Below are positions 48,797 through 60,014 of a stretch of 64,000 bases of DNA, piece by piece. The stretch comes from a virus (Duplodnaviria > Heunggongvirae > Uroviricota > Caudoviricetes). How positions within the stretch are numbered: the stretch's first letter is position 1; the number at the start of each line of letters is the position of its first letter. The notes beneath the pieces were generated by a model. It saw only the letters and a program-made list of their open reading frames with translations, was not told the origin of the DNA and did not search any database. The translations under genes and the position numbers were made by a program. Where the stretch lies: the IMG/VR virus record IMGVR_UViG_3300033494_000001, one strand, 5' to 3'.

Positions 48797-49585
48797 TTAT
48801 TTGAAAATGTATCCAAACAACTTTTCAGCTGTAAGGGTTGATTCAATAACCTCAACATCATTGGCTTGCTCTAACGCTGTAGTTACAGCATTGCGTAATT
48901 CAATGAGTTTTTCAAGTGCGGTTGCACGCTGAAGATGAGTCCATTGACCACTGAATTCCTGGCGAGTCTGTTTACCAAGTTCCACAACTGTATCTCTCGA
49001 TGTAATTTGTGGTTTATAGTCAGAACCAGGTTTCAATTTATCAAGGTTTGGATCAATAAGGATTTGTTGTTCCTTTACAGTAGTCTTGTTGATTTGTTCA
49101 ACTAAAGGTTTCTGTACAATTGCCCGGTTTTTGTATTCTTCGGCTGTATTTGGTTCCCAGATATCCGTTTCAGTACGAACGGGAATACTTTGAATCATTT
49201 GGATCAACTCTCCTTTTTCAAGGATTGACTTGAGGCAAAGCAATTCGTTTGAGGTAAATTCACCCCATGAAGTTCCACCAACTACCAGATCTGCTGTGGC
49301 AACGCCCATACCATTGGTACGTTCTTTTGTCAAAACATTCTGAATGTAAGTTTCGGCTGACTTAATGAAGTAATCAAGTTTTTCAGGTACGGTTGTGACT
49401 ACTTTTACATAACCACGTTTGGTTGGGTCATCAATCATCACATCATTTTGTTGATATGTGTTTTTGAATCCCGTGAATGCTCCTTGAGATTTATCAAAGA
49501 ACTTTGCATAATCTTTCACAATTGCTACATACCTTGCAGCAGCGTCTTGTGTCAGTGCTAATACTAATTTAAGTTTTCTTGACAT
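48797..49585 (-). CDS. hypothetical protein (262 aa), first gene of the Ter-like block
   Basis: Long TGA-free ORF. Confidence 0.4.
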   Translation of the reverse strand: MSRKLKLVLALTQDAAARYVAIVKDYAKFFDKSQGAFTGFKNTYQQNDVMIDDPTKRGYVKVVTTVPEKLDYFIKSAETYIQNVLTKERTNGMGVATADLVVGGTSWGEFTSNELLCLKSILEKGELIQMIQSIPVRTETDIWEPNTAEEYKNRAIVQKPLVEQINKTTVKEQQILIDPNLDKLKPGSDYKPQITSRDTVVELGKQTRQEFSGQWTHLQRATALEKLIELRNAVTTALEQANDVEVIESTLTAEKLFGYIFK

Positions 49586-49599
49586 TTTGTTTTTGTTTA

Positions 49600-50682
49600 T
49601 TAAAATGATTTAAGGTTTTCGGATTTATCGCTATGACTAAGTAATACTTCAGAAAATCCTAAAGTAGTATTAATCATATCAATAAAATCATATTCGCTTA
49701 GGGCTTGTATTAATTGCCCATTAATAGTCAATTGCCAATCGTGTTCTACGTGATCAAGACAAGTAATGACTAATACATCACGATGTTTGTTTAGGTATTC
49801 GTCTTTACTAACAGCATATTGTAACAAATCTAAATCCAGAATGGATATTCTAAACTCACCTTGCCATTTGTTATACACATTTGTTTCAAGAGGATTAGGT
49901 TTGATATTATGAATAAACTGTTCATTAGTCATTGGACCATTACCATGACGAGTTTGGTATGCTCTAGTTACTGCATAGCATTTAGGAGTATATCCCATTT
50001 CTAAGATATTTGTTGTTCCTACATTCGAGCGAGTAACATGTGGGAAGAATCCATAATGTTGGTCAAGAAGTAACCCTTGTGAACCTTCAAAGATATGTGA
50101 TGGAACTGATGGCAAAACAGTGTACATTTTAATTCGAGCATGTGTAGTGATAAAGTCTATTGCTTTACGAAACTCAATATTATTAGCTGTACAAAGATAA
50201 AATTCTTCCATTAAACCATATTTGATATCAAATACAGTTTTATTGAATAAATCTTCAAATAACAATGAATGATACGCTTCTTCTCTGCGTTTAGTGGAGC
50301 CTACACCTGTGCCACATGTTCCATTTTTTGCATCCATACTTTGATTATACTGCTTATCCAATGGAGTAGTTACTGGACATTTTGCATGGATATGCAAAAT
50401 AGGACGAATTCCTTTCTGTTCCAATACTTTCAATTCATTATAGATACCAACAGGATCAACTGTACAATATTGTGACCAATAAGTCGGGGCTCCATTTAAA
50501 GAACCTGATCCAAAATTGGAAAAAATATGTCGAAGTTCATCTTTTACAACGGTATGACCTGCTTGTTGACCTCCTGAATATCGGATTATTGCAGCATTTG
50601 GATTTTGAAGAGAAAGGTAGTTTGTTACTAATCCTTTCCCTTCATCTCCAAATTCTATGCCTATTACAGCTTTTGCATTCAT
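49600..50682 (-). CDS. short divergent adenylosuccinate synthetase homolog (PurA/PurZ family)
   Basis: P-loop GIEFGDEGKG, YSGGQQAGHTVV (catalytic His context), CGTGVGSTK, FEGSQGLLLDQHYGFFPHVTRSN, AYQTRHGNGP all align with PurA; 360 aa versus ~430 for bacterial PurA; the Asp-binding RRRR loop is replaced by GEFRISILD. Confidence 0.75.
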   Translation of the reverse strand: MNAKAVIGIEFGDEGKGLVTNYLSLQNPNAAIIRYSGGQQAGHTVVKDELRHIFSNFGSGSLNGAPTYWSQYCTVDPVGIYNELKVLEQKGIRPILHIHAKCPVTTPLDKQYNQSMDAKNGTCGTGVGSTKRREEAYHSLLFEDLFNKTVFDIKYGLMEEFYLCTANNIEFRKAIDFITTHARIKMYTVLPSVPSHIFEGSQGLLLDQHYGFFPHVTRSNVGTTNILEMGYTPKCYAVTRAYQTRHGNGPMTNEQFIHNIKPNPLETNVYNKWQGEFRISILDLDLLQYAVSKDEYLNKHRDVLVITCLDHVEHDWQLTINGQLIQALSEYDFIDMINTTLGFSEVLLSHSDKSENLKSF

Positions 50683-50829
50683 TTATTCAGCTGCAGTTTC
50701 TTCTACAACTTCTTCGACTTGAACCTCAGCAGTTTCTTCAACTGGAGTTTCAGTTTGGCCCAGTTCTTCAAGACTGGTTGATTGATATTGAATATTTCCC
50801 ATGGTTTTTATTAATTTATTGATTGTGAA

Positions 50830-57742: not shown

Positions 57743-57855
57743 TTGAAGGGGGTTTAACACCCCGCGGTTTGGCGAAGGGATCGCCTTCTGGTACAAAGTA
57801 ATAAGGAATTGATTCAGTGGCTTTTTCAGCGACACCCCTTCTATTTTATGTACAT

Positions 57856-57876
57856 AGAAGTAACTCAATCATAGCC
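57856..57876 (+). repeat. 21-nt motif copy 8
   Basis: AGAAGTAAC-TCAATC-ATAGCC, just downstream (minus sense) of the 703-aa gene stop. Confidence 0.5.
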
Positions 57877-57902
57877 TTGTTATTATCACTTTGCCCAATC
57901 TT

Positions 57903-60014
57903 TTATATACCCATATATTCCATGGTCTTTACATACGAAGATGCAAAGTCATCGAATAGGAAGTGAGTTTCTGCAGTTTCTTTCGATACAACACGACCAC
58001 GTGCCTCGACATGCCATTGTAGCAAGTCATATACACTGACCTTTGGTAAAGATATGTACGGTTTCAACGCATCGAAAAATTCCGACGATTGACCGTAAAC
58101 AAAACTTGAAAATCCATCATAATCCAGGTCCAAATAAATTGATTCGCGAGCAACTAAATCGTATGCTGCAACCAATACCATATTTCCAGCACTTTTTAGG
58201 AGCATAGAGTTTTGAATGGTATCTGGTTTCCAGGTTTTGTTCGATTCAGGAAATTGTCGTTCCATTACACCAGCAACACATTCTTTCAAATCAGAAAGTT
58301 TTCCTCCTTGAAAGTTATGTATTACCATAATGAAATAATTGTACCCGCGTCTTACAGCTTCGTCAACCACAATATCAACATATTCTGCACAAGCGCCTTG
58401 ACGATGACGAACATCACCAGAGTAACATCCAAGTCCAGGTACATTTTGATTTCCATTGTATCCAAATGACATACTGCCTTTTGGACCAATTAAAAATCCG
58501 TGTAAATCCAAATCTTGGTCACCATGTTGATCATACCAATGAATAAAAGGTCTAATAACCTTTTTACCTTCACCAAATGGTGTTCTTTGTCCACGTATTA
58601 CGGGAACTAAACTATCATTCAAGCTACGCATGTTTGTTGGTAATGGAATCTTTTTCAATTCTTCATCAATCCAACAATCGCCGAGTGCAGGCAAATCAGC
58701 AAACTTACCTTTAATGATATCAAAGATAGTAGACTGTATAGCATCAATCTTTTCAGCTGCAATTGCAGGTAGTGAGGGAAGATTAGTATGTTTCCTTGCA
58801 CCTTTAATCATAACCTTGCGATTATTTGAAGGTAGTCTTCTATCTTCAAAATGACTAAATACCTCAAACAATACTTTATTTGAAGCTTTGGCTCCAATTT
58901 TAGCAAGAAGATTGAGAATCAATTGCAAACTACTTTTATTCGCAGTACGAACAAGAAAGTCTAACCTACGTAGAAATTCACCAGGACGTTCAGCAAGCTT
59001 TGTAATCCCAGTGTTAGCGGAAATACTAAAAGCTTTAGTTACTTCGCCGTACCATGATACAACTTTCTCATTTCTAATTTGGTCAAATGCTTTATAAGCA
59101 CGAGGAAACAATGCTTTATATTCACCAGGATGTAAGATTTCTCCAATCCTAACCCAACGTTGGTCTTTTAATTTCATTTCACGAACATCCAAACTAGATT
59201 TCTCCAAGAGTTCTAAAATGAATTTACGTTCAGCTCGTTTGAATTTCTTGAACTTGAATTTCTCTCTTTCAGGATTTGCTACAGTAACATAACTTCTACG
59301 ATAGCCACTTTGTTGTCTTACTGTTTTACGAGGTACGGCAGGAAGAGATACATCTCCGCCTGATAGATATACGATGATTCTCAATACATCGGTCGATGTA
59401 AGAGATGGCAATTGAACTGTACCAAGACCACGGCCGGTAGTAATCAATTTGCCAATCATTGTACATAAGTTTTCTTTAAAAGGGATACTTTCGGGGAAAG
59501 TTAGGAATGGATATTCTGCAACAAACCACTCAAGAACTTTTAAATCAGCAGGAGTCAATGATGTACCTGCTTTTGCAAGACTTGTAAAGATATTAGCAAA
59601 ATCCTGTTCAGTGCCAAGGGTAATAGGTCGGTATTTTACTTGCTCGAATGCTGTACTTTTCGTACGAGTCCATTCGTTAGCAGTGAAAGATCCTCCAGAC
59701 CAATAACCAAGAAGTTGATTAAACCATAATTGTTGTTCCGACATTTCAATTACTTGTGTCGGAAATCCTTTGTATATGGGTTGATAGTCACGTTGACCAC
59801 CGGTCATTTCTTTTAAGTAGTCGAGAACTTCATTATAGAAGTCTTTAATGTTTGCGGCATCAGTATATCCCAATGCTTCTAAAGCATCTGAATCTAACAT
59901 ATAGCCAAACCTCATTAGTTCAGCTTGGCACATCATAGCCAAATTGCGGTTATCAATTCCGTTATTCGGAACAACCACAAGACCTTTTTGGAAAGCGATT
60001 ACATTTTTATTCAT
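57903..60014 (-). CDS. 703-aa protein with C-terminal divergent TerD-like domain
   Basis: C-terminal DLDLHGFLIGPKG...YSGDVRHRQGACAEYVDIVVDE...IHNFQGGKLSDLKECVAGVMER aligns segment-by-segment with TerD (DLDASAFLL / TGDNLTGEGDGDDE / IYDAEARRQNFGQVRNAFIRV); N-terminal ~500 aa unassigned. Confidence 0.45.
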   Translation of the reverse strand: MNKNVIAFQKGLVVVPNNGIDNRNLAMMCQAELMRFGYMLDSDALEALGYTDAANIKDFYNEVLDYLKEMTGGQRDYQPIYKGFPTQVIEMSEQQLWFNQLLGYWSGGSFTANEWTRTKSTAFEQVKYRPITLGTEQDFANIFTSLAKAGTSLTPADLKVLEWFVAEYPFLTFPESIPFKENLCTMIGKLITTGRGLGTVQLPSLTSTDVLRIIVYLSGGDVSLPAVPRKTVRQQSGYRRSYVTVANPEREKFKFKKFKRAERKFILELLEKSSLDVREMKLKDQRWVRIGEILHPGEYKALFPRAYKAFDQIRNEKVVSWYGEVTKAFSISANTGITKLAERPGEFLRRLDFLVRTANKSSLQLILNLLAKIGAKASNKVLFEVFSHFEDRRLPSNNRKVMIKGARKHTNLPSLPAIAAEKIDAIQSTIFDIIKGKFADLPALGDCWIDEELKKIPLPTNMRSLNDSLVPVIRGQRTPFGEGKKVIRPFIHWYDQHGDQDLDLHGFLIGPKGSMSFGYNGNQNVPGLGCYSGDVRHRQGACAEYVDIVVDEAVRRGYNYFIMVIHNFQGGKLSDLKECVAGVMERQFPESNKTWKPDTIQNSMLLKSAGNMVLVAAYDLVARESIYLDLDYDGFSSFVYGQSSEFFDALKPYISLPKVSVYDLLQWHVEARGRVVSKETAETHFLFDDFASSYVKTMEYMGI

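Follow-up and report, generated by a model that had tools for sequence, protein, structure and literature searches.

Positions 48797-60014 of a 64,000-nucleotide stretch of DNA (the whole of which is called the window below), taken from the Caudoviricetes record IMGVR_UViG_3300033494_000001 of IMG/VR, carry eleven co-directional open reading frames (ORFs), all on the minus strand. This 11-kb block is probably a mosaic of three units, lying in a hot spot for accessory genes in a large phage rich in tRNAs, and not one pathway. The units are a gene for a 703-amino-acid (aa) protein, a cassette of Ter genes, and a group of three genes (g122, vWA2 and a gene coding for an enzyme resembling adenylosuccinate synthetase, hereafter PurA-like) which we call the trio. 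The order of transcription is the 703-aa gene, a small ORF, TerD, HAD, PRTase_3, a vWA gene, TerC, an array of small RNAs, g122, vWA2, the PurA-like gene and a DUF7873 gene. A first-pass annotation of this DNA had described a contiguous minus-strand Ter module, coupled to a PurA/PurZ-like enzyme encoded at its head. The shared strand stands, while the contiguity is broken by the non-coding RNA array of 1.3 kb (about 52100-53400), which separates the Ter cassette from the trio, and the PurA homolog sits at the downstream (3') end of the gene string. A coupling of Ter genes with PurA or PurZ, tried as the headline of the region, is not supported, in view of the modular make-up of sister loci and of the separate operon in which 84 viral and 83 bacterial loci hold the enzyme gene.

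The modularity is apparent in sister phages whose 703-aa homologs are 50-70% identical to that of the window. Downstream of this homolog, locus L019 carries TerD–HAD–PRTase_3–TerC and no PurA-like gene, loci L018, L186, L187 and L188 carry g122–vWA2–PurA-like and no Ter gene, and loci L016 and L017 carry neither. Among the sister loci, both units are found together only in L020 and L021, which are 100% identical to the window. Other loci bearing a Ter cassette (L101, L102, L006 and L007) likewise do not encode a PurA-like enzyme. The Ter cassette and the trio are probably independent units that became adjacent by chance.

The trio appears to be a fixed three-gene operon common to phages and bacteria. 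Relatives of the PurA-like enzyme are encoded by at least 540 IMG/VR loci, and those of vWA2 by at least 584 bacterial species in a scan of one genome per species, the vWA2 clade spanning 1,571 clusters at 50% identity. We compared flanks of 10 kb on each side of the viral and bacterial genes, 80 loci of each kind being the best-scoring ones and not random samples. In 83 of the 84 viral PurA-like loci fetched, vWA2 lies directly upstream, the exception falling at a contig end, and g122 is detectable 5' of vWA2 in about 45 of the 84. All 83 bacterial loci have vWA2 (52-59% identical to that of the window) and 82 have the full g122–vWA2–PurA-like order, the remaining one being cut by a contig end. 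Neither set shows the proposed partners within these flanks: TerD, HAD, PRTase_3, TerC and TerF-like vWA genes were found in 0/84 viral loci, and Ter genes in 0/83 bacterial loci. It is the module containing the PurA-like gene that recurs routinely in bacterial chromosomes, and not the whole 11-kb block. Carriers of the trio include Chryseobacterium, Flavobacterium, Candidatus Electronema, Desulfamplus, Methylococcales and Crenothrix. Cluster C mycobacteriophages, a phage contig from the human gut and Rhizobium phages likewise carry the vWA2–PurA-like pair; in the Rhizobium phages a HIRAN protein replaces g122. The DUF7873 gene found 3' of the trio (48797-49585; PF25283, 1.9e-37) is a backbone gene of the lineage and stands outside the conserved trio; L016 has it although the trio is missing there, L188 has it following the trio, and only three other viral loci have it near the trio.

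The PurA-like enzyme (360 aa; 49600-50682) matches Adenylsucc_synt (PF00709, 3.3e-40), as expected from its earlier description as a divergent adenylosuccinate synthetase homolog, and belongs to a distinct clade. We aligned it to Escherichia coli PurA and phiVC8 PurZ, and then to 271 distinct clade members, using E. coli numbering. The residues of catalysis and guanine recognition are kept: Asp13 of the P-loop (GDEGKG) in 270 of the 271 members, the window protein included, His41 and Gln224 in every one, and Asp333, which specifies guanine, in 267. All of these together with Lys16 are present in the window protein, and they are kept in 267-271 of the 271 clade sequences. The substrate site is another matter, with N38Q in 270/271, V273H in 271/271, K331C in 266/271 and Thr129 changed to Cys or Val across the clade (T129C in the window protein). 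The aspartate loop, Thr300-Arg305, is replaced by a conserved QGxFR that cannot be aligned with E. coli PurA. Following the structural literature on the E. coli enzyme, we take Thr300, Thr301, Arg303 and Arg305 to be the aspartate-loop residues and Asn38, Thr129 and Val273 to be contacts of inosine monophosphate. As the catalytic residues are retained, we infer that the GTP-dependent phosphorylation half-reaction survives, and as the aspartate loop is replaced, the amine acceptor is presumably something other than free L-aspartate. To judge from its residues, the enzyme would phosphorylate a purine nucleotide at its 6-oxo group with GTP, and to judge from its loop it would pass the activated nucleotide to another amine, in a reaction running together with its vWA partner.

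That partner, vWA2 (297 aa; 50830-51723), is an obligate companion of the PurA-like enzyme. It found no match in Pfam, NCBIfam or PADLOC, and a profile search against PDB sequences returned nothing significant. An AlphaFold model built from database homologs (predicted local distance difference test score, pLDDT, 75.9) gave 151 PDB matches with Foldseek at E<=1e-3, the best being vWF A3 and integrin I domains. The predicted structure thus points to a stand-alone vWA fold, in agreement with the earlier assignment of a second vWA protein on which sequence models are silent. Its motif resembling a metal ion-dependent adhesion site (MIDAS), D-x-T-G-S, is invariant (D64-x-T66-G-S68), as is D176, and it carries a conserved RESRDSxEHPN segment. 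The homologs listed are without exception stand-alone proteins, some 185-380 aa long, and no fusion to a PurA domain occurs among them. The first trio gene, g122 (51723-52091), codes for a small helical protein of 122 aa with conserved motifs and no family match in Pfam, PHROGs or NCBIfam.

The N-terminus of vWA2 is nearly constant: at least 268 of 272 proteins start with Met-Gly followed by small residues and an aromatic one. In the window, an acidic micro-ORF of 39 aa (50683-50802, MGNIQYQS...) lies between vWA2 and the PurA-like gene, and comparable micro-ORFs of 39-52 aa are found in L187 (8444-8563), L188 (14827-14946), L018 (17262-17399) and L186 (14846-15004). They start with MG..(Y)Q, which resembles the N-terminus of vWA2. 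In the bacterial loci inspected, the vWA2 and PurA-like genes abut or nearly so. The Met-Gly of vWA2 and of the micro-ORF hints at a part for the partner protein in the chemistry. The attacking amine might even be the invariant N-terminal Gly of vWA2, or the Gly of the lineage's MGNIQYQS peptide, giving a protein–N6-purine-nucleotide conjugate; the loss of the aspartate loop, the operonic arrangement, the constancy of Met-Gly and the mimicry of the N-terminus by the micro-ORF prompt this idea, which we regard as speculative and improbable. If true, it would amount to a novel protein nucleotidylation shared by bacteria and phages in a conflict or stress response.

Gene contexts of the trio vary. 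In Flavobacteriia the trio lies in variable, NrtR-headed islands beside lepA, a site that is conserved in the chromosome (L112 and about 60 other loci, L114-L185), which hold NADAR, 2OG-Fe(II) oxygenase, Macro, DUF4291, PARG, DUF2971 and SIR2 genes; such an island looks like an ADP-ribose-responsive one whose content varies by species. Electronema and Desulfamplus have the trio beside a UvrD-type helicase, toxin–antitoxin genes and BrxC/D-like genes, and in Crenothrix it is an isolated insert among housekeeping genes. Recurring neighbours in phages are an R2K ATP-grasp protein, a 'Swiss-army-knife' (SAK) RNA-repair HAD, RNA and DNA ligases and Thg1. The trio behaves like a self-contained mobile module, and its contexts, which point loosely to NAD/ADP-ribose or RNA-damage responses, suggest a role in conflicts of this kind. 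None of the ten block proteins scanned matched PADLOC-DB v2 at E<=0.01, and our literature search found no paper in which PurA-like enzymes are connected with vWA proteins, NrtR, ADP-ribose, RNA repair or anti-phage defence. The g122–vWA2–PurA-like trio is widespread and apparently uncharacterised.

Bacterial Ter systems were reportedly treated by Anantharaman, Iyer and Aravind in 2012. The Ter cassette of the window is of a known kind, phage Ter genes with a phosphoribosyltransferase (PRTase) and a HAD having already been described: a near-complete system with PRTases and a HAD in Acinetobacter phage vB_AbaM_ME3, and shorter ones in Caulobacter phages (PMC7824862, Iyer et al. 2021). Domain searches bore out each of its predicted members. 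It is headed by a small ORF of 104-115 aa (57367-57714), whose start is uncertain, which is called as 104 aa in L020 and L021, and which has no Pfam match. TerD (56685-57260) gives a full-length match to PF02342 (2.8e-65) and has the canonical GDN..GDGDDE calcium-binding motif, GDNLTGAGDGDDE. The HAD-fold hydrolase (55926-56618), of a PRTase_3-linked family, is weak in Pfam and backed by a PHROG hydrolase (1.8e-26) and by NCBIfam HAD-IA above its cutoff. The ComF-like PRTase (55060-55929) matches PRTase_3 (PF15610, 1.1e-77), its phosphoribosyl pyrophosphate (PRPP) loop reading 'IMMDDIKITG'. The TerF/TerY-type vWA protein of 207 aa (54418-55041) matches VWA_2 (7.5e-13) and scores 32.4 bits with vWA-TerF-like against a cutoff of 29.4; vWA2, which belongs to the other module, matches neither model. 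TerC, an integral membrane protein, lies at 53407-54345 (PF03741, 1.2e-49). Between the vWA gene and TerC (54373-54402, minus strand) lies a hairpin resembling a terminator, its stem of 13 bp being accompanied by a T-rich tail.

No TerB, TelA, ATP-grasp or TIM-barrel lyase was found among the block ORFs with Pfam and PHROGs, and these partners are optional in published phage versions (PMC7824862). Across phage records, TerD occurs in 132 and the HAD and PRTase_3 pair is kept in 157; our analysis also confirmed the Ter locus of phage ME3. Motif I of the HAD reads D-x-W and not D-x-D in the window protein and in the PRTase_3-linked HADs of L001, L002, L019, L101 and L102, and the missing general acid/base Asp suggests an atypical HAD activity. 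This is the gene set that was tied to the synthesis of a nucleoside-like metabolite, as the first-pass annotation had noted. In the published model the PRTase and HAD yield a nucleoside-like signal, TerD (and TerB) sense a ligand or metal, TerC is the membrane component and the TerF-type vWA protein builds a sub-membrane structure, and the functions proposed for phage Ter genes are superinfection exclusion and xenobiotic resistance (PMC7824862). By analogy, the PRTase and HAD of the window may make a nucleoside-like ligand, and Ca-binding TerD, the TerF-like vWA protein and membrane TerC may form a membrane-associated complex that would alter the envelope or ion state of the infected cell, leading to exclusion of rival phages or to stress buffering. 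About 1.7 kb 3' of the Ter cassette of L019 (17852-20098) are genes for a PRPP synthetase (Pribosyltran_N), a nucleoside 2-deoxyribosyltransferase-like protein and a Zeta-toxin/AAA_33-type kinase, the first two of which strengthen the nucleoside-synthesis reading. The cassette adds a further example of large phages equipped with Ter stress or exclusion genes.

Several other explanations were weighed against this mosaic. One makes the enzyme a PurZ, in a phage whose DNA would carry 2-aminoadenine for adenine. The protein has the short form of PurZ and its best PHROG match, phrog_1211, is labelled '2-aminooxy adenylosuccinate synthetase', yet Ser takes the place of Asp13 in 100% of 147 phage PurZ/PurZ0 sequences (PMC12884076; PMC8342488), phiVC8 PurZ having GSTGKG where the window protein has GDEGKG. 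The NCBIfam PurZ model scores 45.3 bits against a cutoff of 300, canonical PurA structures match far better (E 7e-22) than PurZ0 7vf6 (E 6.5e-5), and the clade is common in bacterial chromosomes. No DatZ, MazZ/DUF550 or DpoZ was seen among the ORFs scanned, the window not being exhaustively scanned for HD or MazG genes. Because Asp13 is kept and the PurZ score falls under its cutoff, the PurZ reading entertained by the first-pass annotation must be considered very nearly untenable. An ordinary auxiliary purA, boosting AMP synthesis in infection among irrelevant neighbours, has in its favour the conserved Asp13, His41, Gln224 and GTP-specifying Asp333, and many sources do call the protein adenylosuccinate synthase. 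It nevertheless reaches 112 bits with NCBIfam purA against a cutoff of 402 (102 against 396 with a second purA model), several of its substrate-contact residues are invariantly changed, and it is strictly operonic with vWA2 in phages and bacteria. Given these scores and the replaced aspartate loop, it is not an orthodox PurA, and its separation from housekeeping purA was well founded; that it is an ordinary purA after all seems unlikely to us.

A single integrated pathway can also be drawn, in which the PRTase makes a nucleotide out of PRPP and a base, the PurA-like enzyme aminates its C6, the HAD removes the phosphate, and TerD, TerC and vWA proteins sense the product, a nucleoside-like signal. 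Such chemistry is plausible, all the genes run in one direction within 11 kb, and two lineages, that of the window's phage and the Rhizobium phages, have HAD–PRTase_3 near vWA2–PurA-like (within 6 kb in the latter). We nonetheless give this pathway little chance, in view of the trio loci in which Ter, PRTase and HAD genes are absent from the flanks, of the Ter-cassette loci that have no PurA-like gene, of the sister phages that mix and match the two units, and of the RNA array that divides them. The trio on its own may be a mobile conflict system, for defence or counter-defence, tied to NAD/ADP-ribose or RNA damage and serving, for example, to re-aminate deaminated adenine nucleotides. The NrtR-headed islands with NADAR, Macro, PARG, SIR2, DUF4291 and 2OG oxygenase, the toxin–antitoxin, BrxC/D and UvrD-type neighbours in Desulfamplus and Electronema, the phage neighbours R2K ATP-grasp, SAK RNA-repair HAD, RNA ligase and Thg1, and the self-contained Crenothrix insert are in keeping with such a role, but no PADLOC model matches and the ADP-ribose context is seen in Flavobacteriia only. 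This link, drawn from gene context, is one we advance tentatively, as possible rather than probable; it is compatible with the mosaic and not opposed to it.

Some observations weigh against a mosaic of independent units. Rhizobium phages (L001) place HAD–PRTase_3 about 4 kb 5' of vWA2–PurA-like in the same gene string, which leaves room for some loose functional tie of the trio to the enzymes that would make nucleosides. Co-occurrence was judged within 10-kb flanks and on best-scoring loci, of which at least 60 of the bacterial ones are from Flavobacteriia. The absence of the second Asp from motif I of the Ter-linked HAD makes a simple phosphatase role uncertain, and the biochemistry suggested for all three units draws on residues and published models. 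The mosaic is still the explanation we favour, and separating the PurA-like gene from Ter defines a large clade of the PurA superfamily whose substrate site is altered and whose vWA partner is obligate. Database labels such as 'adenylosuccinate synthase' or, for phages, '2-aminooxy adenylosuccinate synthetase' would wrongly suggest purine boosting or Z-DNA, and finding out which reaction the enzyme really catalyses might bring to light new nucleotide chemistry at work in the conflict between phages and hosts.

The remaining unit, the 703-aa gene (57903-60014), is present in 8/8 related phage loci examined, with or without Ter genes, and at least 565 homologs of 48-70% identity are found on phage-like contigs of up to 310 kb. 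It is part of the lineage backbone and would act independently of the other Ter genes. The protein has no Pfam match and is related to the bacterial MXAN_6230/SCO0854 family, with 4.8e-70 for NCBIfam NF041916, a score under that model's cutoff; a literature search on SCO0854, RING and TerD returned nothing relevant. Its N-terminal part is helical or alpha/beta. The AlphaFold model of the family (pLDDT 85.5) has as its two best PDB matches TerD 3ibz (E 6e-4, TM-score 0.67) and then 2qz7, so that the TerD-like C-terminus claimed for the large protein is confirmed at the level of predicted structure, as a beta-sandwich at residues ~476-630 (~58125-58589). Alignment of this C-terminus with TerD by hhalign is weak (probability 15%, P 0.0018). 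ME3_284, a 671-aa protein of the ME3 Ter locus, gave no significant hhalign or hmmsearch match to the 703-aa protein. A Band_7/SPFH protein is encoded a few kb from the 703-aa gene (61142-61921), and one is found near this gene in the window's phage and in 5/7 other related loci, mostly upstream, and directly downstream in L018; a membrane-associated partnership between it and the TerD-domain protein is possible. One member of the lineage, L016 (GCA_053580305.1, JBMDUZ010000001.1, 166 kb), was deposited within a metagenome-assembled genome of Candidatus Saccharimonadaceae, which is either a binning artefact or a hint of the host. It holds many small ORFs, an HNH gene and a T4_Y16D gene.

The array of small structured RNAs that follows the 703-aa gene offers a setting for these insertions. 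The window has 11 copies of a motif, GCTA-N5-10-TTACTTC, where 0.27 would be expected. All are on the minus strand (52183-53190, 47992-48136, 57857-57875 and 28352-28372), each lies ahead of a small RNA or of a cassette, and the motif is a candidate for a promoter or processing signal specific to the phage. The non-coding array bearing it follows the 703-aa gene in all sister phages (L016-L019, L186-L188), lying between that gene and the trio, and is a conserved backbone feature of the lineage. Both in the window and in L019, this array encloses the Ter cassette, with one motif copy ahead of the cassette (at 57857-57875 in the window, just 5' of it); the arrangement resembles an insertion into a hot spot made up of units of a promoter plus a gene. 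A scan for sigma-70 promoters was not enriched (49 against 52.8 expected) and was not used.

Two RNAs of the window (52877-52951, within the array, and 48143-48217; minus strand) are tRNA-like, with normal acceptor, D and T arms and no anticodon. Their anticodon arm is a 6-7-bp stem with a tetraloop (GAAA and CAGG), and ARAGORN reports both as 'tRNA-???'. The Rfam tRNA model scores the first at 37.4 bits and does not match the second. A candidate Y-RNA-like RNA (YrlA, RF02553) of the array, at 53088-53186 on the minus strand, with a T-arm and then a D-arm, scores 35.5 bits where the gathering score is 69, and has an E-value of 1.1e-5 in a 1.5-kb search and a fold z-score of -2.6. No Ro60/TROVE gene was seen in the window.

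The claim that the block is free of TGA did not hold, and that of recoding found no support in the window. The HAD gene stops at a TGA lying in an ATGA overlap with the PRTase start, and TAA, TAG and TGA all end ORFs of the window. With the standard code, minus-strand ORFs cover 79% of the window, and no suppressor was found among its 19 tRNA, tmRNA and tRNA-like genes. On visual inspection, the two tRNAs that Rfam alone detected are Cys(GCA) and, probably, Pro(TGG), with no anticodon complementary to a stop codon. Recoding is unsupported within the window, whose contents include replication genes, tRNAs, a tmRNA and a group I intron, and no late genes. A scan for same-frame ORFs of at least 60 codons each, split by one TGA, found only two pairs in the window, both on the minus strand (41381-41806, 74+67 codons; 39631-40350, 132+107 codons); these could be adjacent genes or read-through.

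The wider window is consistent with the view that the region consists of accessory cassettes of a large phage, as the first-pass annotation had proposed in calling it auxiliary. Its phage encodes the tmRNA, the group I intron (110 bits) beside the replicative helicase/primase region, and at least 18 tRNAs (these features lying at 46455-46788, 7661-7902 and 24849-42318), and SmpB is encoded on the sister contig L017. The G+C content is 34-38% in the cassette region (46001-62000) against ~28-34%, mostly near 30%, in 1-46000, which fits acquired accessory genes. No DNA match to the block turned up in a megablast search of 50,697 phage records.

Set against known systems, the Ter cassette resembles those of phages and bacteria in grouping TerD, TerC, a TerF/TerY vWA protein, a ComF-like PRTase and a HAD in one co-directional cluster of a large phage. 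Unlike them, it has one PRTase and not two, has none of TerB, TelA or ATP-grasp among the genes found, is inserted in a small-RNA array and carries the D-x-W HAD motif; its gene order also differs from that of ME3. The pairing of vWA2 with the PurA-like enzyme recalls MoxR–vWA chaperone systems, where a stand-alone MIDAS-like vWA protein is likewise encoded beside a P-loop NTPase-fold protein, although here the partner is a PurA-type enzyme with intact purine-activating residues and not an AAA+ ATPase. With PurZ/PurZ0 of phages phiVC8, S-2L and Gordonia phage Archimedes the enzyme shares its nature as a phage-encoded short-form PurA paralog, phrog_1211 lumping both, whereas it has Asp13 and not Ser, belongs to a clade abundant in bacteria and is accompanied by vWA2 instead of DatZ, MazZ or DpoZ. 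Finally, it shares with E. coli PurA (PDB 1ade) the fold and the phosphotransfer machinery (P-loop Asp13/Lys16, His41, Gln224, Thr239 and Asp333, the last for guanine), and departs from it in its short form (360 aa), in the replacement of TTGRRR by QGxFR, in the clade-invariant changes N38Q/T129C/V273H/K331C, and in being encoded beside a vWA protein.

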